Origin: Microthyrium microscopicum
Lineage: Eukaryota
Direction of reading: 5' to 3'
Assembly: GCA_010405405.1 (NCBI GenBank)
Contig: MU004232.1
Span: forward strand, 7,540 to 71,539
Length of the DNA: 64,000 nt
Numbering within the stretch: position 1 is the first letter of the stretch; every line of letters starts with the position of its first letter. Positions 3,723-32,193 of this stretch are shown one piece after another. Below the pieces are notes generated by a model. The model was not told where the DNA came from and ran no database searches. It worked only from the letters and a program-made list of their open reading frames with translations. A program made the translations under genes and the position numbers.

Positions 3723-3881
3723 TATTAACCTAAGTAATATAAGCTTTAGAGTATATTTATTAAGTAAGTATTAAAAGAGTTATAAAAGTATAGAAGTATC
3801 TCTTTACTAAAAATATAAACTTTTAATAGTCTAATATTTTATATATAGACTAACCTAACTCTAGCTTATAAACGTTTACTA
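3723..3881 (+). repeat. Putative 3' LTR of the first element
   Basis: 3809-3881 matches 1-73; the start at 3723 is inferred from the PPT-like tract. Confidence 0.6.
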
Positions 3882-5430
3882 TAAGATTAATACTAGTTAA
3901 TAAAATAAGTAGTTAAATTTAAAATACTTTAAATAATAACTTTCTTATTAATTACTAAGTTTATATTTAGTAGATTTCTAAAAATAATTTTAATTAAAAA
4001 CTTTTATTTACTACTTTTTTTTTCTCTTAACTTTTTATAAACTATACTTAGGTTTAGTTAAAAAGAAAAATAAATATAGTTAAGCTAATATAAATTTAAG
4101 TTATTTTTAAAAAAAATATTAGTAATGTTTCTAAGGTTTTTACTAAAGATTTTATTACTAATATTAAAAAAAATATTATAAATTATAATAATATAAGTTA
4201 TAATATTAAAACTTACTTTTTTAAAATAAGAAAGCTAAATTTAGTAAGTTTTATAAATATTATAAAAGTTTTTAAAAGTATTAAATTTAAATTAAATTAT
4301 ATTTTTATTATAATATAAAGTAGTAAAAAGACTAAGAATTTTAAAAATATATTTTCTAAACTTTTCTTTAATATAATATAAAAAATATTCTTTATTAATA
4401 GCTATAGTATATTTACTAGTACTATTAGTATCTTTAAATTTAATAGTTATAATAAAGTTAATTTTATAGTTTCTAACTAAGTTTAAAAAATCTAAAAGGC
4501 TTTACTTTAGTAGATTTTTAGTAGTAGTAATTAGTTTAGTAGTTTAGATTTATTATATTAAAAAGAAGTAGTTAGCTTATATTTAATTATTATAAAATTA
4601 TTATTACTAAAAAGTATTATATTCTTTTACTATAATAGCTCTTTCTTTAGTAATATACTATTCTAAATTATTAAATTACTATTATTACTAAATAAATAAA
4701 TTTATAAAGCTTAATATATTTCTAAAAGCTTTCTAACTATAAATTAAAATAAACTTACTACTAAACTTAGTAATTATATAAAGGTTTTAGTTAGTATTAA
4801 CTTTAAAAGCTTTTATATAACTTACTATAAAGTTATATATAGTAAGTTTAATTTATAAGTATATTCTTATATTTTAATCTTTATAGTACTAGCTAAATAA
4901 ATCTATAAAGTTTAAAATAAAAAGTATTTAGCTTAAAAAACTAAGAAGAATTCTAGCTATAAATATAACTAAAAAGAAAAAAATAGTAATAAAGTTTAAA
5001 AATATTTTTAGTAGTAGTAATAAAGCTTAATAGTTAGTAAAGAATAAAATAGATTTAGTTATCTAATACTTAAAGAATAATAGTACTAGTAAGTAAAAAA
5101 AAGTAGAAAAAAACTTATTTCTATAGTAAAGTACTTATTAGATAATACTTTAAGTATAGAATTTAGCTAGTTAAATAGCTAACTTAATAGTATCTTAAAT
5201 TAGAAATAAATAGAAAGTAATATACTAGTAAGTTTAAAGTATAGATTTTAATAATTAGTTAAAAAAGAAATAATTTTATAAAAATAGATTAAGATACTAA
5301 ATTAATAATTAAGTATTTACTAGAAAATACTTTTAAAAATATAACTAAATAAATAATATATATTATTTTAATAGTACCTTAATAGGTTTAGAAATAAAGA
5401 ATATAGTTAAACTTACTATAGTTATCTAGA

Positions 5431-6336: not shown

Positions 6337-8957
6337 GTTTAATATATAATATATAATAATTTTTTTACGATATAGTAGTCTATATTCTAAGGTTATCTAT
6401 TAAGAAAAGAATAAAGATATATACTAGTAAGAGTAACTAATAATACTTCTCTATTCTAGTAGCTAAGTTAGTATTTAAAGAAGGAAAGAAATCTAGTATT
6501 ACGCTATATAAAGAAGCTAGTATACTATGCTCTTCTTAATAAAATATAAGCTTAGCTAAGTAATCTAGTAGTAATAAGGCTCTACTAAGTTATATTTAAT
6601 AATATTATCTAGGTAGATATCTATACTCTAGATTATTTAGAAGAGTTAAATTTCTTTATTAGAAACTAATTTATAGTATTTTAGAATACTTTAAAATAAA
6701 TTATCTATATTATATTATATCTTAAAGGTGTACTTATACTAAGTTTAAGTATTCTATAAATCTAATTCTTATAATATTTCTAGTTACTAGTCCTACCTAG
6801 TCCTAGTATAATTTTACTAGTTTCTTACTAGTATAAAACTATATTATAAACTTATACTTTACTTAAACTAGTAAGAGTTATAGCTTAGCTAATTATATCT
6901 TTAAAGCTTAAAGTTATTAAATCTAAGCTAAAGTTAGGTAAAGGAATACTACTATCTAGCTCTCTATTAGTAGAAAGATTAATACCTAAAGGCCTAGTAG
7001 GCTCTAGTCCTACTAGTGCTTAAATTTACTTAGTAAGAATCTAAGCTATAAACTAATACTAGAAGTTACTAAAAACGTAATAGCCCTTATTTATTAAATA
7101 AATATAATCTTAAAGTAATTTTATAGAAAATATAGTAAAGTTAATAGCTATGACTTTACTTCCTATAAGATGCTATTACTAGACTACTCTTAGAATAAGA
7201 GATTAAAATACTACTATAGCTAGTTATTATACTTAGTTATCTGTTTTTAATAGTCTAATTAAGAATTATTAGTTTATTTTATAAGTAGCTTTATAAAATT
7301 ATTAGATTCTTATATTTATTAATCTATTAATACCTATAGAGTAATATATATCTAATATAAGAGCCTAGTTAAGGTAAGAGATATAGTATAAAAAGTAGTA
7401 TAGCTTAATAATAAGATAATATAAATAGTAATAAAGCTATATAATTTTTAAAAGAAAGTATTTTAAATAAAACAACTTAGATAGCCTTTCTTTATATACT
7501 TAAAGTTAATTTCTTTAATTAGAATATTACCTCTATAATATAGATTAGTAGAAGTAGTTCTAGTACCTATTCTAGTAGTATATAAGTCTCTAAAAGTAAT
7601 ATAGCCTTAAGTAATTACTTACTCTACTAAGCTTCTTTTTAGAAAGCTAGGATAAAAAGAAAGTAAGAATCTAATAAAGTAATAAATAGATATAATTAAA
7701 GTAGTTATACTTAATAATAAAAGCGTTTGTAGTTATTTTCTTTTAATATTTATATTTAACTATACCTACTACTTACTTATATTTTATTCTTAAACGAAGT
7801 AACTACTAAAGAGGTACTAAGATAGAGAATTTAACTACTTTCTCTATACTTATATATACTATAAATATATAGGCTTTACTTATATAAATTAGTAAATTAC
7901 TTATTATTATATTCTATTATAATAAATTTTAAATACTATTAGTATATTAATACTACGAAAAAGTATAGTTATTCTAGAAAAGAGTAAAGAGTAGCTTATT
8001 TTACTACTTTTATAAGTAAGAAATAGTATACTTATTAGCTTAACTATAAGTATATATTATATAAATCTAATAAAGAAAGAAGTTTACCTTAAGAATATAC
8101 TAGTAATATCTATAATCTAATAAATTTCCTAATATAGTATAAGTACTAAGCTTAAGGAAAACCGTAGTAAATTAGTAATTTATATTATATAAGTCTTCTT
8201 AAAAACTAAAAAGAGTTTTTTTATCTACTTTTTTATAGTAATACAAATTAGATAAAAGTAGATTACTTAAGAGGTTTACTATACTATACGATTATATTAT
8301 ACTTATTTAGTTAATATATTAAGACCTAACTAGACTATTACTATTATAAAATATATAAATTAGTAGTTATAGTAAATATAATATATAAGTAGCCTTCTTT
8401 ATATCTATTAGTAAGTTCCTTAAATCCTTTAATAATTTATAAAGTATACTTATATATTAGGCATTATAGTATAATAAGCTAAGTCCTACTAACTTATTTA
8501 ATTATTAAGAGACTTTACTATAAGAGTACTAGTATTTCTTTTAGAGAGTAGCCTTTATTAATTATAGCTATTTCTTAAATTACTAGCTTTTATTATAGTC
8601 TAGATATATTAATAGTAGTTTAGTTAATAGTAGGTACTATAAGTACTAGGTCCTTCTAGCTATAGTACTATAGTTAGAACTAGGTAAGTACTTAATTTAC
8701 TAAGTACCTTTCTTCCTACTAGGTAGCTTTTTAACTTATTATTATGAAGTAGTAATATACTAATAATATTAATAGTTTATAGCTAGATAGGAATTTAGGC
8801 ATAAGATAACGGATTATAGGAGATAAAAAGAGGCGCTAATAGAATTCAACTTATAACTACGTAGTCTATATAAATAAGAAAAATTTAAATATATTAAACT
8901 CTTTATTTCTAGCTAAAATAGTACTTCTAACGTATAACTAAGCTCTTCTAAAGGGGT

Positions 8958-9199
8958 TAATAGCTAGATTACTAACCTATAGTCCTTAGTACTATATAGA
9001 CTTAATAGTATAGACTATATCTAAAGGTATAGAAATAGGTAAGATCTTAACTTACTTTAATTATTAAGATATATATTATATAGCTAAATTAAGTATGTCT
9101 TCTATATCTAATTTATATCCTCTTATTCTCTAGATTTTATAATATATATTTAAATATATAGTAGAAGCGCTAGCCTATTTAGAGATTTATATATAAATA
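8958..9199 (+). repeat. 5' LTR (fully RIPed)
   Basis: Aligns to 31827-32068; begins TAATAGC (inferred TGACAGC) and ends TA (CA in the other copy). Confidence 0.9.
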
Positions 9200-10932
9200 A
9201 ATTAAGAGCTAAACTATAGATCTTCTAAACCTTATATAATTAAGTAATATAATTAAATAATAAATAATAAGCTCTAATAATAAATAAGCTATTAGATAAA
9301 TAATAAATTAATATAGAATAAATACTAGCTATAGACTAATAGAAAGTAATTCTAGACGATCTAGTACGCTTATAGTAGCTAATATAAAATAATAAATAGC
9401 TATAAGTATTATTAAACTATTAGGCGTATTTAAAGCGTTAAATTTAAATTAATAAATAGTAATTATTTATAAGAAATATAGTAATTATTAAAATATAATA
9501 AGAAAGTAAAAAGTAACTAAGCTAGTAAAATATTAGTATTCTTATTACTATTAGTTTAACTATATACTTTTAAAGTAGTTTTTACTATATAAAATAATAG
9601 TTCCTATATATAGTAAGGATATATAGCTATACGCTAGTTATTTATTATAAGTAGTCTAATTTTTAATATTATAGTTAACTTTCTAGTTAGAATAGAGTTG
9701 TTATTAAACTTATAAATAACGCTATAATTAGATTATTAGTAGGTAAATTTTTTAAATTTATATAAGTTTAACTACTAAGCTATTATTTTATAATTTAGGT
9801 CTACTATTATAACTTCCTTATTAGAAGGTATCTTATAAATAAGACTTCTTTAGGTTAGATTATTTACTAGTTTATACTTTTACTCTATAACTACTAGGCT
9901 AAGATTAGAAGACTTTAAAGACTTCTTCTTCTCTTAATCTTTATTACCTTAATCTATTATACTTTTTATATATATTATTCTATACTTATTAATTTAATTT
10001 AATACTATACTACTTTATCTTTTAAGGTTAGCTTTAAGAAACTTCTTACTTCTTATTATTATTATAGCTAGCTTATTGTTTTAAGTAGTATAAAAATAAA
10101 TAGAGAGAAAGAGTTATTTAGCCTAAATTAAAGTTATTAACTATAGTTTAAAAACTATTAATAAGATTTATTACTCTTTTAACTTAGTACTCTTATTTAA
10201 GAGAAAGTATTATTAGCTTTATTAAATATTAATTTCTTAGTAACTATGCCTAGAAAGTCTTTATAGATTTTATTATTATTATTAATAAAAATCTAAAGCT
10301 TTTATATATCTATTTTACTAGATATACCTAAGTTTCTATTTTTTAATATTATAGTAATTAAGGCTACTTATCTTCTTAGAACCTTTTATAAATAATACTA
10401 ATAGTATACTTTATATTACTCTAAGTAGAACTTTAGCCTACTAGTTAAAATTAAAATACTAGTATCTTTTAAAAGATCTCTTTTAGTTTCTTTTTCTAGA
10501 AAGAGGAAATAATTATCTATATTATTTATTTTAGATAGTAAATTTAATAAATAATTCTTTACTACTTTTCTTATTATAAAAGATTAAGGTAGTGCTTATA
10601 CTATAAGCTAATATAGTAATTTAGATTCTTTAATCTATTTATTTACTAAATCTATCTTAATTAATAAATTTAATAGCCTCTATAACTAAGATATTTAAGC
10701 TTATACTAATAGTTATTATTAATTAGCTAAAATCTTACTTTATAATAATAGTTTTAATTAAGATTCTAATAAAAAGATTAAAAACTTAGAAAATAAGATT
10801 ACTAAAGGCTTTATAGTTACTAACCTTACTTTACTTATTTAAGAATAGAACTAAGTATATAATATTACTTAAGGCTATATATATAATAACTTTATATAAA
10901 TATTAACTATTAAAATAGATAGATAAAATTAA

Positions 10933-13900
10933 ATGCTAATCTCTAATATTTTAAAGAAGACTAAAACTATAATTAGAAGAACTATATTTATTAATAATTA
11001 TATTAATAAGTTTTATAATCTCTCTTATATTATTAGGAAATTATATAATTAGAATATTTATTCTAATATAGTTTATAACTATAAAGAGATAATTATAATT
11101 AACTATTACTCTAATTAGGTAAAGTACTATAATATTATCTTTAAAAAAGCTATAAAGTTTATTACTTATATCTTTAATAAGGCTTACTTATTTAGAAAAA
11201 TTAAGACTAAAGACTAATTATATACTAACTTATAGATTTAAGATCTAGCTAACTTATTAAGATAAATAGTAATAATACTAATTCTAGCTTTATAATTATA
11301 GCTAAGATAAAATCGTCTTTAGAATAACTAGAATACTTAAATAAATAATTCTTAGCCTTTATATAACTAGAGTAGCTAACTTAACTAAATAGGAGGCTAG
11401 TAAGGATATATATAGCTTTAATAATAGTATTAATTAATCTATTTTTAGTAAGGACTTAGAAGCTACTTTATATAGCTAGCTAATAATAAATAATAGTACT
11501 AGGAAGATTTAAATTCTTTAATATTAGCTTTATCTACGTTATAAAGAGTTAGCTAGCTAAAACCTTCTAGTAATACTTATAACTATTTAGATAATTAGAA
11601 CTAATTAGGTTATTATAATTCTTATAGTATTAGTAAATATTAACTATTAACTTACTTTAATTATAGCGTACTAAGTATAAAAAGGAGTAACTATCTAACT
11701 TAGCGTTAAGAAGAATAACTTAATAACTAATAGTAGTAACTTTCTTTAAACTATTCTACTTTTATAAATTCTTTAGTAATAGTAGTAGTATAAGTATTAT
11801 AGTAGGAAGTAAATAGAGTTATTAGAGATTATTACTCTAGTATTTAGAGACCTAAGATTAGGAATAGATTTTATAATATTAATAATAAAGATTAGAAAGA
11901 GCCTACTTAGTATAGATATATTAATAGTATAAATATTTTTAGTCTAGACTAAAGTAAGAATAAAGCTAGTAAGTTAACTCTCTAGCTAGAAGATATAGAA
12001 TTTAAAAATACTACTTTAGCTAATGTAGTTAAATATACTTAATATAATATTAATAATAATAAAGATAAAGATCTACGCTCTTATAAAACCTAAGCCTAAC
12101 TAGATAATTAGAATCTAGATATAAATAATAATTCTAAGTTCCTTAAAGGTACTAAGATTTTAAAATTTTAATCCTTTAAAGAAATAGAGAAAAAGGGCTT
12201 TATAGATATTACTAAAATCTTACTTAGGCGTCTTATTAGCCTAGAAGATAGTATTATAGTAAGAAATATTATAAATTACTCTTTTTACCTTATTTAATAG
12301 CTAAGTATAGTATTATAATAAAATAAAGTAATCTCTCTTATAACTTAGTCTTATAAAGATAAGATTTAATAAGAAAATAAAACTTAAATAAAGAAATAAA
12401 TAGTAGTACGTAATATCTAGCTTAAGAAAGTAATTTCTATTACTAAAAAATATATTTAAAGCTTAACTTTCTTATAAGTAACTCTAACTAATACTAATTA
12501 TTATATACTAATAGTAAAAAAAGATTAAATAAATACTTTAAATATAGTATATAGAGTAAACTTTATAAATACTAATAAATAATTAATAAAGACTATTACT
12601 AAGAATACTTTATATAGTTATCTAGTCCTAGATACTAATATATTAAAATATATTTTCTATACTTAAGTATATATTACTATACTAGCTAGAAAAGAATATA
12701 TTTTATATAAAGTTTTTCTAAATAAAAGCTCTATTATAAATCTTATTAATATTTATATAGCTAAGAAGATAAGTCTTAAAAAGTAAAAGTTTAAGCTAAT
12801 ATACGTTATTTTCGTTAATAGCTCTTAATTTACTCTAAATATAGAAATAAAAATTATTTTTAATATTAATAGTATTATTTATAACGTTTAATACTATGTT
12901 GTTTTAGAAATAGTTTACTATAATATCTTTTTAAGTTTCTATTAGTTTAAAAGTATAGGTATACTAAAGTAGAGTAAGTATAGACTTTCTATAGTAGTTA
13001 ATAAAAAGAATTATTAAGTTACTCTAGATTTTTATTATTATAATAGAATAAAGAGAAAGAATTCTAAGATATAAGTTACTTTAAAAAATTTACTTTCTTA
13101 AATAAATAAACTTATTTTTTTAATTTATAAATTAGTAAAGGTAGTCTTTCTATAATTTCTATTAGTAGTTTAATAAATTAACCTAACCTTAGATACTAAA
13201 TATTATATTTACTTAGTAGATAATAAGGAACTAATAACAATTATAGATAAAGTTTATTAATAAGTCTTAATCTAAAACTTAGGCAAAAAGGATTATAAAG
13301 CTATAAAGATACTATTAATTAGTACTTTAGAGTTAACTTAAGATATACTAATAAAGGTTATTTAATAGCTTTTAAAAGTACTTTACTAGTAAATATCTTA
13401 AAGATTACTAACGTGCTTAAATATATAAAGTCTTATATATATACTTTATTTATAAAATATACTTTTATTATAGATATAATATATAGTATAATTATAGAGT
13501 ATATAAGTATTAGTAATCTTAAATCTAGAAGAAAGAAAAAAATTAAGTAAAAGACTAATTCTAAAGATTATATTAACCTTAATAATATTAACTATAAGAA
13601 AATATATAATTATAAATTTTATTTAGAAGTAGTATACTAAGAATATTTAATAAATTTATATAACTACTACTTACGCTTATTTCTCTTCTTTATAATAACT
13701 TAAGTCTACTATCTTAATAATTTAGTAATATAAAAGATTCTTAATTATTTAGTATAAATTTCCTTAGACTTTTTACTTAGCTAAAAAGCCTAATTATAAT
13801 AATATTTATTATTTATATATTTAAATATACTAAATAAAATAAGCCTAGTTAAAAGAATATATTTAAATATAGATAAGTTATTATTTAAAGAAGAGTCTTT

Positions 13901-15984
13901 AATATAGCTTAGAGTATATTTAAATAGATAGAAAGAAAGAAAGTTATAACGCGTAAAATAATAAGAAAAATTATTTATAATATATTTAACTATAGAGCTT
14001 CTAAAAAGCTTAAGTATTAACTAACTAATAGTTATTCTTTATAATTAGGATAAATAACTAGTAAAAAAAGGCTATATATAATTAGTTATTAGAGAACTTC
14101 TTTATAAAATAGAATTTAATAGTATTAATTTTAAGCCTAGAAGTATTCCTATTTCTTTAAATATAACTAAAAAAGATATATTTATAGAAGAGTTAAATAA
14201 AGACTTATTATAAAATCCTTATTAAGACTTTATATATATACTAAAAGATTAGCTCTATATTAACCTATTAGAGGCGTTATTTATAAGTTTAAGTATATTT
14301 AATTCTTTATAAAATTTAGTATATTAAGAATCTCTTATACTAAGACTAAGTAATACATAATATCTATTTATTAGATAGGTATTCTTATATAAATATTACT
14401 TAGAATCTATTACTAATAGTATAAATATACTTTCTCTAATACTTAAAGAATTAAGATAAAGAAAAATAGAAAATTAGTTATAAATTCTAATCTTTTCTTT
14501 AATAAAGAAAGAATTAAATATATAAAATAGATAAATCTTTACTACTATTAGTTTAAATATACTATTTTTAGAAGCTAAGAAAAAATCTACTTAGTAAAAA
14601 AATCTAATTATTTAAGCTTTTTTACTTAATTCTACTATAGATTTAATAGAGTAATTAAAAATATTATAAAACTATAAAAGTAATATTTTTATTATAGATT
14701 ATAGAAATAATTTAAGCTTATTAGATTAGTAAGATCTAATAAATACTACTATACTAATAATATTAGAGTTAATTAGTAACCTTAACGTAAAATATTCTAT
14801 ATTTAAAGCTACTTAAATTATATAGCTTAGCTTAAAAAACTTATAAAAGAAGGAATAGTTCCTTTTTAAAGAACTTAAAAAACTAGTATAGAACTATATA
14901 TAGATAGTAAGTATATATTATCTAAAATATTAAAAAAATATAAAGATTTTAAGATCTTTAATAATTAAAACTTTTTAAAACTTATTACTATAATGTAATT
15001 TAAGTAAAGAAAGGAATACTAATTTAAAAAGCTAAACTATATCTATTCTTTTAATAATAACCTAGATCTTATAAGATTTTCTGTAGAATTTTAGAAAATA
15101 GATAAGTTTTAAATTTAGACTAAATACTAACCTTAAAGATAGAATAATACTAGTATAAAGATTAACTTAAGTAGTATTAAAAGGGAATAAATCCTAAAAA
15201 GCTACTCTTATATATTTAAACCTACTTAATTTCTATATTTCTTAATAGTATTAAAATAAATTAGCTTTAAAGTGTAAAAACTTATTATTTATACTAACTT
15301 ATACTATTATTATAAACTTTAATAAAATACTTAAAAAAAGAAAAGACTATAAAAAGGAAATTAGGAGTCTAACTATACTTATTAGTTTAAATATAGCTTT
15401 AGAAATAGACTTTATCTAAGACTTAAAAGATTTATATATAACTAACTTTATACTAAATAGGACTTACTTTTAGAAAGAAAAAAAGCCTAACTAAAAAGAA
15501 GCTTTTTTTATTTATAGATTAACTTATATACTAGAGAAAATAAATTCTTAAGATCTTACTATAATAAAGTAGATTCTACTATACTAATTACTTAATAAAC
15601 TTCTAGTAAAACCTTTATTAGATAAATATTAGTTAATAGTTAATATAACTAAATTATAAAGAGTAAGAACGCTACTAGTAGATATAATAGTAAACTCTAT
15701 AACTAAAAATATAATAAGAATAAGACTAAAATAATAAATTAAATAACTAAAACCTTTATATCTTAATAATATACTATAAGGAATCTAAAAATATTACCTT
15801 AATAAAGTAATTAGTAAAAAAAAGTCTAAATCTATTAATATAGTAGTAAAAGATAAAACTATAACCTTAAAGAAGATCTTATATTAAGAGAAAGAAAAGT
15901 AGTCTAATTTATTAAAAAAGTACTATTAGTATAAAAAGCTTTACTTATTCTATAAACTTTTATTAAGAGTTATATATAAATCTT
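10933..15984 (+). pseudogene. Gypsy gag/aspartic protease relic plus long spacer (start approximate)
   Basis: 12712-12747 reads V F L N K S S I I N L I, consistent with RIPed VFLDGGSxxNLI retropepsin motif; codon-like + strand bias. Confidence 0.65.
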
Positions 15985-18900
15985 ATTTATTATTTTTTAG
16001 CTACGCTAATGAGCTATATAGACGCTACTCTTACTTTTAGAAAAACCCCTATAGAGAAACCTATAGTATTCCTTTAGTTACCTTCTAGTAGCTTTATTCT
16101 ATTATTATTATAATACTCTTTTAGTCTACTACTTCTAAATAGAAGGACTTATATTATCTCTCTATAAACTATAAGCCTACTAAAGAAATTCTAGTTAGTA
16201 GGTTAATATAGTAGATAACTAGTAGTTACTAACTACTAGGGGCTCTATATAGCTTAAGTATACTATACGTTATATAGATTCTATACTACGCGTTAGAATC
16301 TTAATCCTTAATATTATCTTTATTACTAGTTTCTCTTTTAGAACTTATTTATTACTTAATTGCTTAAGGCTATAGTATCTTCTAGAATAGATTAGATTTA
16401 GCTTCTTAATACCTATTTTTATTTAGTATTACCTTATTATTAAGTTTTGCTATTATAGTTTAATAAGTTCTTATTAATTTTTCTCTTCTTAGAAGCCTAT
16501 AGCTATTATCCTTATATAGTTAACTTTCTATATAGTTTTATAATAAATACGTATAATACGTATTTTTAAGTTTTTATAATTAATTTTTGCCCTTAATAAG
16601 CTTTAGTATTACTATAGCTCTTAACTATATTAAGCTCTCTCTTTTAATACTTATTAAGTAGGATATCTATAATACTCCTTAGCTAAGTTTTCTTTATTAA
16701 TCTATACTCTTTAATATTATATAATAGGCTATTAAATAGTTACCTTTAAGTTTCTAGTAGTCTATATAGTCTACTTCTAAGGTATAAAGTATTTTAAATC
16801 TATATAATTTTAATTACTTTTTTCTTTCTAAGTTTTTATTATGCTTTCTACTCTTTCTAATTCTTTTTCTAAGAGTAAGTTCTCTATAAGCTTTTCTTCC
16901 TTTTCTTCTTCTTACCTTTAAATACTTAGTAAATATCTTATGCCTATAGGTACCTTCTTTCTATTATCTCTAAAGAAGGTAAAAACTACTTTATCTATAA
17001 ACGTTAAAAATACTACTTTATTTTTAGACGTAAAATTAGCTAGTTCTATTCTAGCTTCTATTATAAGTCTTTTAGTATTTTTTTATATATAGTATTAACT
17101 ATTATAATATAGACTATATACGCTTCTAGTATAAGAATTTATTTATATTATCTTTAAGCGTTATAATATTATATAGAGTTACTTAATAGTAAGTACTTAA
17201 TTAGTCTTAGTATACTTACTATAGTAATTACTTATATCTATAGTTAGACTAACTCTAGCTAGCGTTCTTACTTTTATTATAAAAAGTAACGTTCTAAGTA
17301 TAAGGCTATAAGTATATTCTTACTCTTAATCTTTTATCTTTTTTAATATTATAATAAGGTACTAATAAAATTAAAGAAGTAGAATAAGTACTTTTAATAC
17401 GCCTTTAATAAGGTAATAGCTAACCTAGTTAATTCTTATTAAGGTATTAAAAAGTACGTATTATTAAATATAAATAAAGAGGCTACTAAATAGGTAGAAG
17501 TTATAAAAGGTTTAGTAAATAAGTTTACTAGCTATAAAGCTTAGTTTACTTCTACTATAGCCTTACTAACGTAATAAAAAAAGAAGAAGCTAAAAATTAA
17601 TATAGCTATACTAGCTACTAATTTAGCTTATCTATAAGCTATCTTGCTAAAACTTTATACTTAAAGTATAAAGATAAATTTATTAGTAAAAATATTTTAG
17701 TTATTAAATAGAGTAATATTATTATTTAATAAAGAGTAGTAAATAAATATAGAATAAAATTAATTACGTTTCTAAATTTAGCTATTTTCTTTATAATTAT
17801 ATATTACTAGCTTATTAGTACTATAGTATTATAGTTAGTTATTTATAAGATCCTTAAGTTTTAGTAGTTCTCTATACGCCTTAAAGTCTATTTCTATAAT
17901 CTTTTTAGTTAGTCTAAATTACTAAAAAGCTCTACTCTTTAGTAGCTATCTAGCTACTACCTAGGTATTCCTTAGATTAGAGAATATATAAGCCTTATTT
18001 AGTATTATTACTTATTTTAGTAATCTTTTTCTATAATATTATAAATAGTTTAGTAGTATATAATAAACTATTTATTACTAATAATTATATAGGTACTATA
18101 GTAGAGAAACTATTAGTACCTATATACTATATAGTTAGTTATTAAGTTTAATAACTTCTAATTATATAAGGAAAAGCGCTATTACTTATACTTTATTAAG
18201 ATTATTATAAAGCTTAATTAATTAGTTACTTTATAATATTCTCTACGTTATAGTAGTATATTATTACGTCCTTATAAGCTATATCTAAGCATTTATCTAG
18301 AGCCTATAGTAATATACCTTAATTAGAAATATCTCTAGTTCTAGTTTAATTTTTATTTCTTTTTTCTTTTATAGTATACTATTTATTAGTTATATTACTT
18401 ATTTATAATTAGTATCTTGCTTCTACTTTATTTCTAATCTCTTCTTTTATTACTTTAGTACGTTAATTCTTTAAGCTATAACTTTAGTTATATGTATCTA
18501 TACTAGTTTAAGTATTACTAGGCTTCTTAATTATTATTACTAAGAAGATATTCTCTAGTTCCTTAGGAGATTTACCTAGTATACTTTAGTAATAATTTTG
18601 CTTATCTTTTATATTATTATTAAGTCTTTATTCTTATTAGTATATTTCTCTACTAAAATTATAGTATTTATCTAGAGTAGTTTAACTTCTATTTCCTTAT
18701 TTAATAAAGTAATAAGAGTTCTTTAGTATCTTCTTATTATCTTATAAAGTATATTATTCTAAACTACTACTAGTAGTTTATAATAATCCTTTAGTATCTT
18801 AAGGAATAGTAATCTTAAATTCTATACTTATACTCTATATATAAAGGTTAGCCTAATAACTACTATATAAAGGAGCTTTATCTTTCTAAAGACTAGTCTT

Positions 18901-21900
18901 TATCTTAACTATACTATTCTTAAAAATACTACTACTTACTTAAATCCTTTAGTTCTAGTCTTTTTAATATAGTCTTTTTAGTTTATTCTTTTATTTACCT
19001 ATATACTTAGTACTCTAATACTCTTTAGTATAAGTTTAGTAAATATACTATCTATTATTACTATAGATTATAAGTCTATTTCTAAGTAGTAAATATTCTA
19101 AGTAAAGTATATTACTTAATACTTATTAAGGATAAACTTTACTCTATACCTATTTACTTAGTTAGTATACTTTTAATAAGCTTCTTCTAGTCTTATATAG
19201 TTCTTTTAAGTAGTATTACCCTATATAACTAATATAGTATTATTTATAAAGCTAAATCTAAAGACGTTATTACTTATATCTTAGAAGTATTCTAATAGTT
19301 TTAATATAAAGAAGAGGAAAAGAATAAGTAAGAAAAAGAATCTCTAGAGGATTCCTATATTAGTTATTATTACTAGGCTTTAGTACCTAGTAAATATAAT
19401 TTAGGTTATATAATTAATAGTAAAGCTTACTATTATATTAATTAGCTACTAAGAGACTTTCTTTATCTCTAGAATATAAAGAAGCCTTCTTAAATTAATG
19501 TTATTATATACTTCTTAAAAGTTAAGGCTAAGTACTAATACTATAGCTTTTACGTTTTCTTTTTATACTATCTTAATAGTACTCTTTAAGAGCTATACTA
19601 CTATTAGTATTAACTATCTTACCTTAGCTTTTATTTAGTTCTAAGGTAGTAAGTTATTATCCTTTACGAGTTAGGTAAGTTTATTAGTAATAATCTTTTT
19701 AACTAACTTTATTATTATATTTTTAAAGATAATTAGCTAGTAGGCTACTAATAGTAAATAGTTTTTCTTACCTAGCTTTTTTAATATTAGTATATAAAAT
19801 TACTTTAAATATTTTAGGATTATGCTACTTATTAGTATTTTACTAATTATAAGTACTAGTTTTTTACTAAATTCTATTAGTTTTAGATTATTATCCTTCT
19901 TTTCTAGTTATACTTTAAGCTTAAAAGCCTTTAAGACTTTATTTAGTATATTAATAGGTCTTATTACTTTATAATTTAGGAGGCTACTAATTACGTAATC
20001 TATCTTTTCTACTATTATCTTATAATTTATCTCTAGTTCTAGGAGTAGAATAGCGTCCTTTATATTACTAAAGTCTACTACCTCTATTTAAGGGAAGAAC
20101 TTTATAAATAGTATATCTATTTTACTTTAATTATTATAAGTATAGTTATTACTAGTAGTTTATCTAAGTGCTAATAGGTATAAGTCTTTCTTTAATCTAC
20201 TAGCTTTAGCTTTTATTTATTTACTTATTCTCTATAAGCCTTAATTCTTATAGCGTTTATAATTCTTTATAATCTCTTCTATAAAGGTTTACTAAAATAC
20301 TACTTTATCTTAATATAGAGATTTTCTTAGCTAAGCCATAACTAACTTATATATATACTTATTCTAGTTAGTTCTTATTTAGAAGTATCTTTATTTTACG
20401 TAGTACTTCTTTTATATTAGTAAGGTAATTATAAGTAACTATCTATATAAAGCTTACTTTAAGGATTTTACTTTTAGGTAGTAAATTTTTAGTACTTTTA
20501 TTATTATTCTATATAGGGCCTTTATTAATATATCTTTAGTATCCTATAAGCTATTATTTACGTATTTAATAAATTATTCTATATCTAGTTTTTATATATT
20601 ATATTATACTTTTAGTATATACTTCTCTTATCCTAAGGTTAGCTAAATTAATACTAAGATATAATCTTTTATTAGTACTTAAGTATTAACTAGGCTATAA
20701 AACTCTAATCTTTCTTAAAAGAACTAAAATAAGAACGTAAAGTTAATTACTATCTCTACTACTCTTACTCTCCTTTCTTTATATAATTTATAGGTTAGTT
20801 CTCCTTCTAGTATATATAGATAGAGCCTTTACTTAATTATATCTTAGAGTAAGGTATTTACTTAGGGTTTAGTAGCTAATACTACGCCTTTTTATTAATA
20901 ATAATAATAGTTAAAGTCTTTTACTAATAGGATCTCTTCTTCTACTTTATTAATTATCTTTATTAGTATTAGGTATTTAGTAATATAGTTATAGTTACTT
21001 ACTACTAAGCCTTTATTATATATATTAATAATTATTAGTATTATATACCTATATTAAAGGCGTAGTATTAAGATAAATTAGTTATAATATCTTACTTATT
21101 AGTCCTTTATATTAAGTACTTTACTTATTATAAAGTATACTCTTAATTAATTATTTTAGTTATATATTAGTACGTAGCTAAAAGAGTAGTATATCTCTTC
21201 TAGCTTTATAATTCCTTTAGGGTCTTAGATTATTATAATTAGTTACTTAGTATTATTTAATATATTAAAGAATAGTCTTACTTCTTTCTTATTTAATCTC
21301 TTATAATTATATTATATAATATTAATACTATTTATCTAAGTCTATTATTTAGATTCTATTTATTTTATTATTAGAAGTTAGCTTAGAATTATTTATAGTC
21401 TATCTTACTCTTCCTTAATTATTCTCTTATTAGTTTTTTAGGGCGCTATCTCTTATAGTCTATAAGCTATTATTACTTTTATTAAAGTTAAATATACTTA
21501 TAATTAATTTCTAAGTATCTTAGACTAAGTTATTATATACTTTATTCTTTATTTCTTATAATACTAATAGTCTTCTAAGGTTCTTAGTTTCTACTTTTCT
21601 TTTCTTTATACTATTTACTATAGTATATTTATTATTATTTATAAGCTAGATTAGTATAGTTTAAGTAGGCGTTATAGCTTTTATCTATTTTATATATCTT
21701 TTATTTACTACCTAGAATCTTTTTATACTCTTAAAGTAGGTTTAGTATACTTTATATATATTTTTCTACTATATATAATATCTTTAGGTTTACTCTTTTT
21801 CTTTTCTTCTTTCTTTTTTATTATTTTTATAGTTAGAGTACTAGACTAGACTTATTCTAGTATAGTTCCTAGTATTATAATTACTTATATATTTACTATA

Positions 21901-22948
21901 ATTTAGTTTATACTAAGTATAAGCTATTTACGTATAGCTTTAGACTTAGTAATAAAAGTACTATTTAGTAGTATATTTTAAGTTATATAATCTAATAAAG
22001 AGCTTCTTTACTCTAATAATAAACTTCTTCTAAATAATCTTGTCTCTTATTACTATTATTAGGTAGTATAATATAAGTAATTCTTTAGTATATACCTTTC
22101 TATACTTTTCTAGTTCTTCTTTTACCTATTTATACTCTACGCTTTTATAAAGCTACTAAACTACTTCTATTTCTAGGTATTTAAACTTTATTTTATTTTT
22201 ATTAACTAGTTCTTTAATTAGTTTACTATTATTTATATTCTTACTATAGGCTATATTTAGTTTAAGTAGAGCCTTTAAGATCTTTACTAGATAGTCTTAT
22301 TATAAAAGTTAAACTTTATCTAAGTCTATTTAGTATAGCCTATTTTAAATATAGTCCTTATTTAATTATATATTAACTATAATGTTAATATTCCTACTAG
22401 GTAGTAGCTTAATAGCTATTACTTATAGAATAGTTTCCTTAATCTTTTTAAATAGCTTTATCCTATCTTGCTTATTTTCTTCTAATATATTTTTAACTAC
22501 TTTTATAATATTAATTTAGACCATTAAGTTTATAAAGAGGGCCCTTTAGTTAAGGATTAGTAGGTTAGGTTCTTTTATAACCTTTACCTAAGAGTTAGAG
22601 GTTATTTTAATCTTAGTAATCTACTTTATAATTATATTAAGTTTTTAGTTAAGACGCGTCTTAAAGCGCGTTAGTAGAGAGGCCCTATTTATAGTTAAAG
22701 CTATATAGAATACTAGTTATTTAACGTAGTCTTATACTATAACGAAGGATATATAGTATTATACAAAATTAGCTATTAGTTAGTTAAGGAATAGTTATAT
22801 TAGATTTCCTTTTTTAGATATAAGTCTTCCTAATAGTACTTTAATTCTTCTCTATACTCTTATAAGTAGTAGTTTTAAGTTATCTTTTCGTTTCTATATT
22901 ACCTCGTTTTTAATATAGGTAGCCTTTATAGTAATAATAGCTATTTAC
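15985..22948 (-). mobile_element. RIPed Tad-like LINE (non-LTR retrotransposon) nested in the Gypsy element
   Basis: Minus-strand RT motifs after de-RIPing: LPNxKAxGPxxIPNEALK (~19935-19985), YRPIALEN (~19720-19745), LSLDFQGAYDNI (~19497-19535), GIPQGSPLSPILF (~19310-19355), GFGFVDDT (~19240-19262); A-rich tail at 15985-15998; 10-bp TSD TATAAATCTT at 15975-15984 and 22949-22958. Confidence 0.9.
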
Positions 22949-22958
22949 TATAAATCTT

Positions 22959-25900
22959 TATTTATCTTTATAGCGCTAGCTATTACTTACGTTTAGTTAA
23001 AAGTTATACTATTATAATAGTCTTAATAAGACGAATCTAATAATAATAGTTTTATAGAATAATTCTAAGAAATTAATCTTTTAGTATAATAATACTTTTT
23101 TTTATTAAGAGTTAATAAGGTAAAACTAATCCTTTCTACTAGTCTAGTACTAATATATATATATAATAAAACGTATAGATAAGTAATATTAAGATTTTCT
23201 ACTAACTACTAATCTAAAGATTCTTAGCGCCTAATATTAAGTATATTTAAAGGTATAATTATAGCCTAGATCTTTACCTAAATTAAGGTAAGTCTAGACT
23301 TTATTAATAGTATACTAATAACTAATACGTAATAAAGAAGGCTTTACTATATACTATATATTTAGAGAGATTTCTTTATTAAATTATTAAAGTATATCTA
23401 GATAATAAATTTTATTATATATTATATTTTAACTTATTTAGAAGCTATATTAAAAGTAATACTACTTAAGATTCTAATAAAAAAAGATAAAGCCTACTAG
23501 ATAGTAGTTATTCTAAAGCTACTAAAAGTAATAATTATAATATACTATATCTTAAATTAAGCTATAAAAGAATAATTAATACTTAAGAAAAGATATAAGT
23601 ATAAGCCTATATAATTTATAAATAGATAAACCTATAATTTTTAACTAGTTAATATAGTAACTATTAAAAGCTACTATTTAATAAAATAAAGTAAGCTTAT
23701 TCTTAATAAGCTTTATAAGTCTAATTATAAAATATTTTTTAAGATAAATATAGCTAATAAATACTAGTTAGTAGGTATCTATATAAATAATATTTATAAA
23801 ATAGCTTTTAATATAATATATAGTTAAATAGTTTAGACTTAGATAGGATAAAAATTAATAAATACTTATAAGACCTATTAGAAGTTAAAGGATTTTATAT
23901 TTAGTTCTATACTAGCTTTTAGCTTAGAATCCTTATTTCTAAACTATTATAATAAAGCTATAGTAGTTAACTTTATAGATAATAATATAAGAAGTATAAA
24001 AGATATAGATGTAATAATTAAGTTTTTATATAAATATTACTTTCCTTATATAGCTTAAGTAAAGCTTATATTTAATCTAGATAAATATTCTTTTACTTAT
24101 TCTTTAATTTACGTCTTAAGTATATAAATAAATTAGAAAGAAATTAAATTAGATAATATTAAAATTAAAGTAATTATAGAATATTCTATACTTATAAACT
24201 AAAAGTAAGTTAAGTAATTTAATTATATACTACTATTTTTATAAAATAGAATTCGTAAGTAATTAGAATTAACTTAGATCTTTAAGAGAGTTACTATAAT
24301 AATTAGAAAAAGAGTTTAGAACTTAGTTATATAAAAGTATTAGATATATAAAGAAGTTAAAGCCTTTAAATAAAAAGTAGAGTAATAAAAAATATTCTAA
24401 AGAATAAAGAATATAATTACTATAAGAACTAAAAAAAATAGGAATTTAAATCTATAATACTACTTTAGTACTAACGTATTTAAGACAAAATATAGTAAAT
24501 ATTTATTCTAGCTTTCTAATTACTTGCTAAAAGTTATAGAAAATAAAGTTCCTATTAAAGAATACTCTCTAGTCTTATTCTATTTAGTATAATTCTTAGA
24601 TACTAAAAGAAACTATAGGACTATAAAAAGAGAAGTACTAGTCTTATTAAAAATAGTAAAATATTTAAGTTAGCTCTTTATTAGTACTTAATTTCTAGTA
24701 ATAATCTATACTAACTACTTTACTATTATTTAAATTATTTAGGAAGATATAGTTAATATAGCTTAAATTACTTCTTAGAAGTAATAACTACTTAAGTATA
24801 ATCTAAAAATTATATATATCCTTAAAAAAGATATTACTATTATAAATAAATTATCTTAAGTTAGTAGTAATCTAGCCTTATAAGATACTAAAATATATAA
24901 AACTTCTAAAGTTAATATAGTTACTAATAAATCTAGAACTCTTTCTAAATATTTATATTCTTAGGAACTAAAAAGTAAAAATCTTTAGAAGAAGATAAAT
25001 AAAGATCTTAAGTCTTAGAATAACTAATTAGTAAATTCTTAGTATAAGGAGAAGGTTTTCTTTCTCCTAACTAAATAAATATAATAAATTTTAGTAATAA
25101 GTAAGAATATACTTAAATAAGTTTAATAAAAGCTAGTACGTTAAATAAAGTATTTTTAACTTATTTAGAAATCTAAGCTTTACTTAGCTTATTATAAAAG
25201 AAATAGAGAGCTAGCTTATTACGTTTCTAGTAATTAACTCTACGTAGTACTTAAAAGAACTTATAATATATATAGATATTAGATAGTAGATAGAACTCTT
25301 TAGTCTATTATTAGAAGATATTACTAGCCTTTATAAATTTAGAATATTTAGTAATATACCTAGAAATATCTTACTTATTAACTATTTAGACCTAAGTAGT
25401 ATACTAAGAATCTAACTTTAATTTTATAGCTATAACTTTAGGACTATATTTTTTTTAACTTACTAAGTCTAATCTTTCTAATATTAAAAAAAGGAAATAG
25501 ATATATTATAGTCTTTTAGGACTATGCTATATAATTCTTTACTAATAAAGCTATACTAAAATATAAAGGTATTTATATCTAGAAAGTATTCTATAAGAAA
25601 GTTCTTTTATAAGCTAGATATTTACTAACTACTTTCTTAAATAATAGTATCTAATTCTAAGATAGAAAGTTTATAAATAAGCTTAAGCTTAATACAATAA
25701 AGATATTCTTTAGTTTATTATATTATCCTTTTTCTACTAGTTTTATTAAAAAGCTAGTCTATATAATTAAGGTAGAGATAGTTAAATATATTCTTAATTA
25801 TCCTAAATAGCTAAAATATTAGTATAAAGTAGTAAACTAGTAGTTTAAAATACTAATAAGTAGACTATTAAAAATAGAGAAATATATACTTAAAATATTA

Positions 25901-26400
25901 TTATATAGATTTTAACTTTAAAGAATATAGGACTTTATAGTTAATAAGAAACTTAGATAATTAATAATAAATCTAGGTTTATAAAAGAAAGTTATCTTAT
26001 TAAGGCTTAATACTATAGCTTAAGTAAATTAGATAGTAAAGCTAGCCTAACTAGATAAAATTAAAGAGTATACTATAGAAAATTACTTTACTAAAGTAAT
26101 ATAATACTCTAATAAAAACCTTTTAATAAATAATAATAATATAGAGCTAGGAGATCTAGTATTTATAAAGAAAGTCTATTTAAATAAATAAAAAAGCTAA
26201 GCCTTTTAGCTATAATAGGCTAGGCCCTATATAGTAAAGTCTCTTAATAATAATAGCTAAATAGTTATAATAAAAAAAATCTTCCTAGATTAAACTTATA
26301 AAGATATATAATAATATTTAGATAATCTAAAGATTTATCTAAAAAAAGAGAAATCTTTCTAAATCTTAAAGAATCTAGAAGAATAAATAAAGGAATTATA
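22959..26400 (+). pseudogene. Gypsy pol relic: reverse transcriptase, RNase H, integrase
   Basis: De-RIPed motifs: LYxxLYIWRDFF (~23340), FxDD (~23972), DxxKIKAIxEYPxPTN (~24151), STDASKTGYGGxLFQ (~24467), RNYxTTEREAL (~24609), IYTDH (~24704), HIPGKDxxxADGLS (~24813), integrase FLDNGxQF (~25634) and YHPxSTG (~25722). Confidence 0.85.
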
Positions 26401-27409
26401 AAGTAATATACCTATTTAGTAAAACGTATTAAAATAAGAATAGTTACTAGAGTTTAAAGAGCTTAAAAATAAGAAAGTTTCTAAATAAAGATAGGAGTAG
26501 TTATAAAAATCTAAATAATTTAGCCTAAATAATAAGAAGGATAATAATCTAGAATATTAGCGTTATTATAAACTAGATTTAAATAAAGTAAGTAAGAAAG
26601 TTTATAAAACAAAATTAGTATTTCTATATAATAAGCTATTAGATATATTTAGTTCTTAAAGTATAAACTAAGTAGAAACTATAATAAGTAAGTTACTAGT
26701 AAGGATAGCTAACTAATAAAATATATATCTATTATTAAACTATTACTTCTATTTTATAGAGAGACCTAAATTATATAATAACTAGACTAAAAAACTAGTT
26801 AGAAGAAAATCCTAACTTAGTAAATTATTTACGCCTATTTATTTAATAATAAGGCTAGTAAGCTATTTTCTATTTTAATAGATTATTAAGAAATTTCTAA
26901 ACTATAAAGAGTTAAATTACTACTATTAGTTTAAATATACTATAATAAATATTAAAATATAATATCTTTCTTTTATAATATATAATTTAGAATATTACTT
27001 TTTAAATAAATAGTTAAGATAATACTAGGTATTATATAAAAGAGTATCTATTCTATAATACTACTCTTTATAGAAATATAGAAATACTATATATATATTT
27101 ACTATAAGTTTAAATATACTTTAATGTATACTAAAATAAAATAAATTCTAAGTACTTAGAAAATATAATAAACTATACTTATCTATTTAATAATAAGGCT
27201 ACAAAGTACTTAGTAAAAATAGAATCTAGGTATAAAATAATACAAATACTTTATAAAGAATAATAAAAGAAGTAAAAGATTAATAGATCTTTTATAATAT
27301 AACTTAGAATAAAGTATTCTTCTATAAGACTAGATATACCTAAAATAACTAAAGATACTACTATAGGTTTAATAATACCCTAATAGAGAAGATTATATTT
27401 CTATAATAA

Positions 27410-27530
27410 AGAAAAATATTCTAAGTATAATATTCTAAGAGATATATAAATATCTCTATACTTTTAATAGAAAAAAATATTCTAAATATAATATTCTAGG
27501 AAGTATATAAATAATCTTATACTCCTATTA
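27410..27530. repeat. ~60-bp tandem duplication inside the Gypsy 3' region
   Basis: AAAAATATTCTAARTATAATATTCTA...TATATAAATA repeated at ~27412 and ~27473. Confidence 0.75.
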
Positions 27531-28399
27531 GTTTAAATATAATATCTTTATATTATAAATATTAATAAATTTATAATTAGCTAAGATACTATTTAATATT
27601 TATATTTTAACTAAACGTAGTAGTAAAAATTCTTAAGAAGAGCTATAGTAATATATTTTCTTAGAAAAAGCTATATAGCTAATTTAGGCGCTACTATACC
27701 TTTAAATATACTATTTCTAACTAGGCAAAATATATATAGAATTCTATAAAACTTAGAGAATAAAGTTAACTCTCTATACTATTTTAGAAACTTAATAATA
27801 ACCTTTATTATCTATAAGATAACTTAGCTATAAAATCCTAATATTCTATATCCTTACTTATTTAATAATAATTTTTCCTTTAGAGTTATATAATAAGAAT
27901 TTAGATATACTAAATTAAGAAAGCTAGATTTTAATAATATATTTATAAAGAAATATAATTAATACTAATAAGTAAATAAAAATCTAACTTAATAATATAA
28001 ACCTTTAGGAATTTAATAACTTAAGAGCTAACTTTAGATTTCTTACTATAGGAGATAAAGTTACTACTTCTATATATTTAAATGTAATTAAGAACTTCTA
28101 ATTTTAAAAGCTATAATTACTTTTTAAAAAGGCTAATAAAGAGTTAATAAAATATTTAGCTTTAAAAATCTAAGGATCTAAGTATAACCTTCCTAAGTAG
28201 GTACTAATATTTAATTAAGAAAGAAATAAATTATTTACCTACTAGTATATATTCTACTTCTCTAAATTAAATTACTCTATTCTCTTTATACTATACTTTA
28301 TAATAAGATATTCTAAAATTATAAGAATAGATACTATATAAAGATATATTAATAGATTTTAGTATTACTATTAAAAATAGTAGATTTAGTAAATACTAC

Positions 28400-31300
28400 T
28401 AAGTAATGATAACTTATATTAAAAATTAATATAGTACTTTAGCTAAAAGATTTCTTAAGAAACTTCTTAGAGAGCTTATTTATTAAATTAAGTATAAATA
28501 ATAAATAATTATAAAATAATTATTATAATTCTATATATAAAGTATAGAAAGTAGCTAACTTAACTTATTTATATCTAGCATAATATATATAAACTAAAAA
28601 GTATTTTCTAATAACTAACTCTAGCCTAAATCTAATTAAAGAATATAAAAGAAAGTATTAGTTAGTAAAAGAAATAGACGCAAGTAATTAAACTTAATAA
28701 AAAAAAGAACTAAATATTCTAAAATATAATATACTAGATTATAATAAATAAATAGCAAAGCTTAATAATAAGTAAAAGCTAGAAAAAATAGTAGACTATT
28801 TTAAGAAAAAAATCTAGTAAAGACTAGTTATTTTTAGGATAATAAATAAAGAAAAGTAGAATACTTAAGATTTAATAGACGAATTAAATAAAATATAAAA
28901 GCGCCTTAACCTATATCTAAGAGTTCTTATTTAATACGAAATATTTATATTTCTAATCTATTAAGGTTAAGTATAAAAGTATATAGTTATATATAACTTA
29001 GATTCTACTAAACTCTAAGAATAAAAATATATAAATTAAGCTAATATTAAAACTATTTTTAATTAGTAATAAGCTAATATATATAAGTTCCTATATATCT
29101 TAAATAATATAAGAGAAGCTACTTATTATACTTAACTCTATATAGAGAACGTAATTTCTCCTAATTACTAACTTAAGATACTTAACGCTTAGTATAGTTT
29201 ACTATTATACTAATAAGTTAATATAAAAAATAACTTAAAATTTAAAAATAATAACTCTTTTCTCTAATAAGTAGAATATATTTTATAGGTATAAATATAT
29301 AAAAAAGATAAAGAAGAGTTAAATATTTTAATACTCTAAAGTAAAGTAGTAAATTTAAAAAGAATTAAATAACTTTAATTATATTAAGATATAACTAATT
29401 CCTATATAACTATTATAGAATCTTCTATTACTATTTATAAGCAAAAAGTCTAAGTTTAAGTAAATAGATTACTAGTTAAACTAGTAGCTAAATAAGTTTA
29501 ATTTAACTTAATAGCTACTAGTAAAGAAGATAAAGTTATTCCTAAGCTAGAAACTATTACTATATTCTAAAATCTACTAGTTAGGATTAATAATTTAATA
29601 TTACTATCCTTTATATAACCTTTCTTATAAGAAGAGATAGAAAGTAGAGCCTCTTTATTATATTAGAAAATAAAGCAAATTAATAAAAATTTAATTCCTT
29701 TAAGCTTATTTAATTTAGAAGTAGAACTAGGTTTATTACTAAACTTTTTAATAAAAGATATATATACTACTATATAAGCTCTTAAGAATGCTTAAATATA
29801 ATAAGAATAACTAAAAAACGAGCTAAAGAAAAAAATAAAATTAAAGATAATATATAGCTTAGATTAGGATAAAGATAAGTACTATATATTAAAAGAATAA
29901 CTATAGAATTATATAGATAGTAAAATTCTATAAATATAGCTTTATAAATTTAATATAGAAATTAAATATTTTAAGATAGATTTAGGAATTTTATTAGTAG
30001 TAAAATATTCTTTATAACTAAAGCCTTCCCTAGAAATCGTAGTTACTATTAAAATAATTATATAATACTATATATTAAAGAAGAATAAAAATAAGATAAG
30101 TCTTTAGAAGCTAAATATCTTTATTAAATATCTAATCTAGATAAGAACTTAAGTTTAACTTTAATATAACTATAAAACAATAAGAGGTTAATTAGTTTAT
30201 AAGAATTAGGAATACTACTATTTTTTATAATAAGGTTAAATTATAATTAGTAGGCTCCTTTAAGTATATATAAGACGCCTAGAGCTAATTAAACTATTAC
30301 TAAAATTTTATAAGATCTATATAAGTAATAGAGTAATTTAAGAACTTATATATAAAAAGAAGAATTTAAATTTTATTAGTAAATTACTAGTACTACTAAA
30401 TAATACTAAGTATTTTACTTAGTATAAAAAAATTATAAAGCTATTCTATAATACTAAGAATAAATTTATAATTACTCTTCTAGAATAAGTAGTTTAAAAT
30501 ATATTTACCTATCTTAGACTAGAAGGCTTTAATTTTATTAATATTATATATAATAATCTACTTTAGTATTAGTAAAATATAATATTTATTATTAAAAATA
30601 AAAAAGTTACGTATTAAGACTTAAGACTAGACTATCTTAAAAATACTTAGAAATAGCTAATAGATATAGCTAATAAGATAGCTATAACTAAGTTTAATTA
30701 AAACTTAATACTAAAATAAGTTTAAAAGTAAATAATAGAACGTAATAAATAAGTTTAATAGTACGTTAAGGCCTTACTATAAGAAAATAATACTATTTAA
30801 TAATAACGTAATAAACTTATAGACTATATAATAAAGTACTTAGATTATTTACTATTAAACTACTTTCTTAATAATCTACTAGTTTAGTCTACTCTATTTA
30901 TAAGTAAATATAAAAATAAATAGTAGTATAATAATAATTATCTACTATAGCTATAAGATTATATAAATATTAACTTTAGTAGTAACTAAATAAATAATAA
31001 TAAAAAAAATTATAATTATAATAATTAATTTAAATTCTATACTAATAAACTACTTAAAGAAACTAAGTACTATAATAAACTATTAAATAATACGCCTTAA
31101 TTAATAATAGTATCTTAAGAGAATAATATTATATTTAAAAAAGTACTAGTTAAAATATCTACTTTAGTTAACTACTTTATTATAAAGAAAGTTATAATAA
31201 ATAATTAATATAAAGATTATAATAATCCTAAGAAATATAAATACTTTAATAATTTAGAGGCTAAATAACTACTTAATAAAGTTAAGTAGTAAAATCTATC

Positions 31301-31790
31301 TATATAATAGGTTTATAATAATATAATTTAATAAAAAGATATATAGCTTTATAGTCTTTAGTTTATATATTATCTAATATAGTAAAAATATAATTAGATA
31401 AGCTTCTTATTCTTAAAGCTAGTAATATTTTTTAATACTATACTACTAATTATTTATAACTTACTATAACTCTTACTTACTTTATAATAAAATAAAGTTA
31501 AGAACCTAAATATAAGTACTTATTATCTAATACTATATTTAATATATATAAAAATATATAAGATTTTTTATAAAAAGGAATAGCTTAAAGAAAAATATAA
31601 CTTATTATTAACTATTTAATCTAAATAGGAACTATTTCTAAATAATATACTAAAGGATAGTAAAAAAAAAAATAAAGGTACTAAAAAAGAAAGTAAGAAA
31701 ACTAAAGGTAGTAAGTTTACTAAAACTAATAAAAAGGAAATTAAGTAATAAAAAATTTATTAATAAAAGATTTATTTATATATAAAGTTA
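28400..31790 (+). pseudogene. Relic of a long extra ORF of unknown function between integrase and 3' LTR
   Basis: One + frame can be read for several kb with GAA/AAG/GAT-rich codon-like structure; stops are TAA/TAG (typical RIP products); K-rich end. Confidence 0.45.
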
Positions 31791-31826
31791 AAATTATATC
31801 TTAATCTTTATTATTTATAAAATAGT

Positions 31827-32068
31827 TAATAGCTAGATTACTAACTTATAATCCTTAGTACTATATAGACTTAATAATATGAACTATATTTAAAGGTATA
31901 AAAATAGATAAGATCTTAACTTACTTTAATTATTAAAATATACGTTATATAGCTAAATTAAGTATGTTTTCTATATCCGATTTATATCCTCTTATTCTCT
32001 AGATTCTACGACGTACGTTTGAACGCACAGTGGAAGCGCTAGGCTGTTTAGAGGTTCACACATAAACA
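31827..32068 (+). repeat. 3' LTR (left part RIPed, last ~100 bp unmutated)
   Basis: Aligns to 8958-9199; ends ...CACACATAAACA, followed by GGGTT. Confidence 0.9.
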
Positions 32069-32193
32069 GGGTTCTTTGACAGCTTGAAAGCCGCCTCTCT
32101 TGTTCTTGTTCCGATACTCAAACACCACACATCAGTTGAGAGCTTGGGAATAGACACACGTGGTCCATATATGTGCTGTGTCCGACAGCCACG

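Follow-up and report, generated by a model that had tools for sequence, protein, structure and literature searches.

The 64,000-nucleotide stretch of Microthyrium microscopicum DNA analyzed here (the window) carries, between pol and the 3' LTR of a Ty3/Gypsy retrotransposon, the remains of a large additional gene that we call ORF3. We are confident that ORF3 was a real sense gene carried by the element and that it is now dead. Fungal Gypsy elements are usually depicted as gag and pol alone, and here a fifth of the element's 16 kb is given over to one large extra gene without a detectable relative.

RIP-saturated fungal DNA, with a GC content of 14-24% and CpA and TpG nearly gone, makes up the first 32 kb of the window, and host genes at a GC of ~45% follow past that point. 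A repeat search of the window returned the pair 8946-9197 and 31815-32066, which marks the LTRs of the element. The features of this copy are as follows.

8954..8957, + strand: left 4-bp target-site duplication, with the identical four bases at 32069-32072
8958..9199, + strand: 5' LTR, ~242 bp
10450..13050, + strand: gag-protease region, RIP-decayed, approximate limits
13150..15972, + strand: 5' part of the pol frame, ~900 codons before RT
15973..23102, - strand: separate 7.1-kb RIP-decayed insert, at the pol site in the window copy only
23103..26550, + strand: pol (RT, RNase H, integrase; non-chromoviral fungal Ty3/Gypsy clade), RIP-decayed, approximate end
26550..28300, no strand: non-coding spacer with short tandem duplications, spacing 179 and 61 bp
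28300..31750, + strand: ORF3 relic, ~1130-1150 codons in a single frame, that of 28401
31827..32068, + strand: 3' LTR, with a short purine-rich stretch just before it
32069..32072, + strand: right 4-bp target-site duplication

Two TG...CA LTRs with a target duplication and the order RT - RNase H - integrase identify the element as Ty3/Gypsy. The genome holds five full-length copies (that of the window, C3 at 1.70 Mb, C11, C1, and C2), and the three uninterrupted ones are 15.8-16.0 kb long. Each of the five ends in TG...CA and is flanked by a separate 4-bp target duplication, with one transition difference in two of the five duplication pairs and some terminal LTR bases altered by RIP; RIP decay is seen in every copy. 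Three sequencing runs showed no intact copy, the differences there being almost all transitions, and one presumed-RNA run matched the LTR only. A guessed tRNA-primer pattern had no match in the genome. Two LTR-only matches of the ORF3-bearing family, at G000:C10:1555724-1555961 and C3:2740386-2740582, are possibly solo LTRs.

Several other structures were observed in and around the copies. Upstream of the element, the RIP-decayed DNA of the window contains a three-copy 170-bp tandem repeat (1560-2068) and an 87-bp repeat pair (1-87 and 3809-3895). A protease-like stretch lies near 12710, as judged by eye against locus L127. The protease-to-RT linker in the pol frame (13150-15972 plus 23103-23680) spans ~900 unassigned codons, several hundred more than in intact metagenome relatives; a long linker occurs in Metarhizium album KHN95785.1 as well, with no detectable similarity to that of the element. 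The insert at 15973-23102 shows LINE-like RT motifs by eye and a flanking duplication of roughly 12 bp, and Pfam gave no match on it. In the C2 copy, ORF3 is interrupted by 7.9 kb of inserted, RIP-decayed DNA that gives an RT match (G000:C2:1286238-1294108, L031). The same copy was also hit by a Gypsy element that is intact and free of RIP (G000:C2:1270095-1277759, L029 and L030), with a GC of ~50%, identical 226-bp LTRs, and open gag and 1443-codon pol frames, so a second Gypsy family has been recently active in this genome.

To score ORF3, we used a codon model trained on seven host ORFs from the window to which simulated RIP had been applied. Over 28401-31790, the + strand frame of 28401 scored +0.014 per codon, against -0.061 to -0.108 for the remaining five frames and -0.009 for the best frame of 200 shuffles; pol scored 0.000 in its own frame, and the spacer was at chance level. 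On the mean of four copies, the ORF3 frame was the best of six in most, though not all, 240-nt windows from ~28260-28380 to 31740. The distribution of surviving G, which is model-free, was 141/54/98 over ORF3 codon positions 1/2/3 (chi2 38.8) and followed the same order in pol (116/59/91), with the spacer flat at 47/47/40. Four ORF3 copies are uninterrupted and align without a gap over 3391 bases. ORF3 of the window copy now contains 127 stops, 117 codon columns are a stop in all four copies, and the exact start and stop codons are no longer readable. These results bear out the earlier note on this DNA, which had described a sense ORF relic of ~1100 codons at 28400..31790. The C-terminal tail is charged, the last 80 residues being rich in charged residues. 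The most pronounced heptad rhythm of the frame, at residues 106-190, is not significant, as 36 of 300 shuffles reach it.

That the stretch represents non-coding DNA or the shadow of an antisense gene, possibly an intron-bearing one like brtn, rather than a sense gene is scarcely credible. One antisense frame does have fewer stops than the sense frame (103 vs 127), but simulated coding DNA and pol likewise have their second-lowest stop count in that frame. In addition, every antisense frame scores -0.06 per codon or lower, and the + strand G1>G3>G2 pattern matches that of pol.

ORF3 also belongs to the element. Searches of the genome at the DNA and protein levels, each scoring the best candidates, placed it in all five full copies and nowhere else. 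Twelve weak DNA matches were rejected as AT-rich noise save one, which lies inside a copy; the others fail the ORF3 profile. No terminal inverted repeats stand out around ORF3, also in purine/pyrimidine space, where six overlapping inverted-repeat windows at two places compare with about seven expected. Since ORF3 is found only inside the five copies and is without terminal repeats of its own, it travelled together with gag and pol when the element retrotransposed. The earlier note had placed it between pol and the 3' LTR as part of the element and had named a match to a separate known transposable element with its own ends as one finding that would overturn this; the location holds, and neither the ends of such an element, nested DNA transposons included, nor copies outside the host element were found.

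An unlikely alternative, though one that deserves weight, is that ORF3 was a passenger, either picked up from the host by transduction or left over from an older nested element, useless to its carrier and taken along in a short burst of five insertions. The four copies vary at 615 columns, of which 602 are transitions, and the remaining 13 split 8/3/2 by codon position. The copies hardly differed before RIP, so they cannot show selection on ORF3, and this leaves room for a useless sequence. LTR elements are also known to acquire ORFs behind pol, according to the accessible text of PMC6431247. The inverted repeats, however, do not exceed chance, and a 3.4-kb frame that was of no use, and so old that all its relatives are gone, should show frameshifts. 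None is present in the 3.4 kb of ORF3, whereas the spacer differs in length between copies. Within the spacer, the tandem duplications fall at 26900-27530, where two other copies are shorter by ~200 bp and ~60 bp, or about one unit.

The search for homologues bears on the same alternative. A five-copy ORF3 profile, run with HMMER against 1,835,955,588 cluster representatives from a parent collection that includes fungal proteins from NCBI, returned no match at E 0.001. This result carries weight because of a control and a set of simulations. At the same library size and with default filters, the decayed pol profile scored intact relatives down to E 4e-31. When five RIP-mutated copies of host genes were used to seek simulated relatives, 10 of 10 were recovered at 35% identity over 620-720 residues and 8 of 10 at 35-40% over 300 residues, with few recovered at 25%. 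A distant or small domain in ORF3 would thus escape the search of representatives. A recent capture, by contrast, should leave a homologue in the host genome or among the representatives, and neither yielded one; since a search able to detect 35-40% identity found no relative, recent capture of an ordinary host gene is unlikely. The earlier note had suggested a captured or element-specific gene, and its second half agrees with the presence of ORF3 in five of five copies, while its first half, in the form of recent capture from the host, is made unlikely by this search.

Other searches of ORF3 were less informative. Stop-as-X copies gave nothing in Pfam beyond PriC at E 0.025 and CAP_N at E 0.17 on one piece, and this blank says little because RT and integrase were missed in the equally decayed pol, where RNase H alone was found. 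With that reservation on its Pfam part, the absence of any match to gag, pol, chromodomain, or transposase in ORF3 agrees with what had been noticed before. NCBIfam, PHROGs, and PDB sequences yielded nothing, and no relative of ORF3 was found in viral_contigs. A word-indexed homologue search was blank for ORF3 and equally blank for decayed pol, which makes it uninformative. AlphaFold runs on the five copies gave no usable model (mean pLDDT 24). A candidate RT thumb at ORF3 residues 388-421 reached a probability of 1.1 and was rejected, as the pol alignment gives nothing there.

We then compared the element with its relatives, which were fetched by a short RNase H pattern and comprise at least 118 metagenome loci, 80 of them with full flanks. 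The decayed pol profile recovers intact fungal-type relatives among the listed loci, and hhalign of decayed against intact pol gave a probability of 99.9 and an E of 4e-35 over 853 columns. The sequence of pol places it in a non-chromoviral fungal Ty3/Gypsy clade with the RT motif D[AG]ANG[FY]W, whose members include the intact metagenome loci L070-L145 and, more distantly, M. album KHN95785.1. In the one intact relative that we scanned, RT, RNase H, and integrase are present and a chromodomain (PF00385) is absent. The element is kept apart from the chromoviruses by the grouping of its pol with this clade, the decayed copy itself being unscorable for a chromodomain. Among the listed matches, an LTR pair could be placed in 5 of the 23 clade loci longer than 8 kb. 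In all five, the 3' LTR begins 2.0-2.3 kb past the RNase H motif, compared with 7.2 kb in the ORF3 element, and the element ends right after pol with no ORF3-like ORF. Three intact relatives with readable flanks (L084, L094, and L138) have 4-bp target duplications, CCGG in two of the three. None of the 118 listed metagenome loci scored with the ORF3 profile (best E 0.11), and the 65 ORFs that lie behind pol in the listed clade loci belong to the host or to other elements, or have no assignment. A 923-codon ORF in L127, at a similar distance behind pol, was considered as a counterpart and proved to be a host NACHT-ankyrin gene. Because the relatives' 3' LTR adjoins pol and no listed locus matches the ORF3 profile, ORF3 is not general to the clade; being missing in all five intact relatives with a placed 3' LTR, it is not a clade-wide need either. 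This absence among the listed matches is a further point in favor of a passenger.

The position and orientation of ORF3 are those of an env gene, and its size fits the range of large viral fusogens. Were it an envelope or fusion glycoprotein, the element would be a retrovirus-like agent of fungi, a reading that we consider very improbable. The highest 19-residue hydropathy in the least-mutated ORF3 copy is 1.50, compared with 1.48 in pol, and no more than 16 residues in a row (15 in pol) are free of K, R, E, D, and stops. In a control of 2600 simulated membrane segments from two host transporters, 98% stayed above 1.5 and 1.8% fell at or below it; these scores are somewhat inflated because the segments were mutated harder (GC 0.17) than the ORF3 copy with which they are compared (GC 0.24). 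The window copy has one hydropathy window of 2.53 (residue 1000), which is absent in the least-mutated copy. ORF3 therefore lacks a membrane-like segment, its C-terminal tail is charged, and an env identity is unlikely; the envelope sense of the earlier note's env-position protein thus finds no backing. Neither an anchor nor a signal peptide was found, the latter observation being the weaker since the true start codon is unreadable, and no Cys codon in ORF3 survives RIP, so its cysteines cannot be judged.

The explanation that we favor is that ORF3 was a genuine gene of the retrotransposon family and was reverse-transcribed with gag and pol into five sites, after which RIP killed every copy. 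Its product is likely a soluble accessory protein specific to the element, and would have been large and intracellular. Expression may have come from a transcript of its own, by way of an internal promoter or a splice signal in the 1.8-kb spacer, and the gene is probably old and fast-evolving rather than freshly captured. The most likely job of such a product would have been to aid the element against host silencing through chromatin, DNA, or RNA; the earlier note's chromatin modifier or anti-silencing factor is likewise a conjecture. This function is argued by analogy because no domain, motif, or fold was identified in ORF3, and we put it forward tentatively, as somewhat short of an even prospect. 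For the explanation as a whole, an element gene with an accessory and possibly counter-silencing job, we see about an even chance.

A special case of this explanation, which we judge quite improbable, would make ORF3 a distant PhyH-like Fe(II)/2-oxoglutarate dioxygenase. All four copies are compatible with Y/H-x-D at six columns, two of which (504 and 813) keep the His codon in a copy, but Y/H-x-D triplets are common after RIP. Furthermore, hhalign against an alignment of six host PhyH-domain stretches gave a probability of 0.02, and none of the 10 matches of PF05721 in the genome falls in an ORF3 copy, although Pfam is insensitive on decayed DNA. In the listed clade loci, 0 of the 65 ORFs downstream of pol match a dioxygenase family.

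With every one of the five copies dead, the function of ORF3 cannot be learned from this genome alone. If an intact relative showed selection together with chromatin or RNA activity, ORF3 would be a new retrotransposon tool against fungal genome defence. That the element stands for a branch of non-chromoviral fungal Gypsy with a 1100-residue counter-silencing protein, one with no detectable public relative and distinct from brtn and from the dioxygenases, seems to us rather unlikely.

Additional ORFs behind pol, both sense and antisense, have been described before, and for most of them the accessible portions of the sources give neither origin nor function (PMC7264820; bioRxiv 10.1101/2021.04.13.439636; PMC6431247). 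As a sense additional ORF between pol and the 3' LTR, ORF3 falls into the aORF-3S class. Our searches of the openly accessible literature turned up no description of a sense third ORF of such size in this clade. Precedents for counter-silencing cargo come from elsewhere. A Phalaenopsis Gypsy element with an AlkB-type m6A demethylase ORF, as presented in the available text of PMC9289625, is likewise oversized with an additional ORF and serves as our model for such cargo, whereas no 2-oxoglutarate dioxygenase domain is demonstrable in ORF3. TET/JBP genes ride fungal DNA transposons, and no retrotransposons carrying them were found, according to the accessible part of PMC12730594. Among fungal elements, the Ylt1-like ones are non-chromoviral, per the available text of PMC3248453. 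The D[AG]ANG[FY]W clade shares with our element pol homology over 853 columns and 4-bp target duplications and differs in the distance from RNase H to the 3' LTR. Plant Ty3/Gypsy aORF-3S genes, the "env-like" ORFs of Athila and Bagy2, resemble ORF3 in position, in sense orientation, in their presence in all family copies, and in their unknown origin, as far as the accessible text of PMC7264820 describes them. ORF3 differs from them in its fungal host, its lack of a membrane-like segment, and its length of about 1130 codons, and no sequence kinship has been shown. In Botrytis and Sclerotinia, the fungal Gypsy element Boty/BcGypsy1 likewise has an extra gene, brtn, downstream of pol, according to the accessible parts of PMC7264820 and bioRxiv 10.1101/2021.04.13.439636. 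As described there, brtn is antisense whereas ORF3 is sense.
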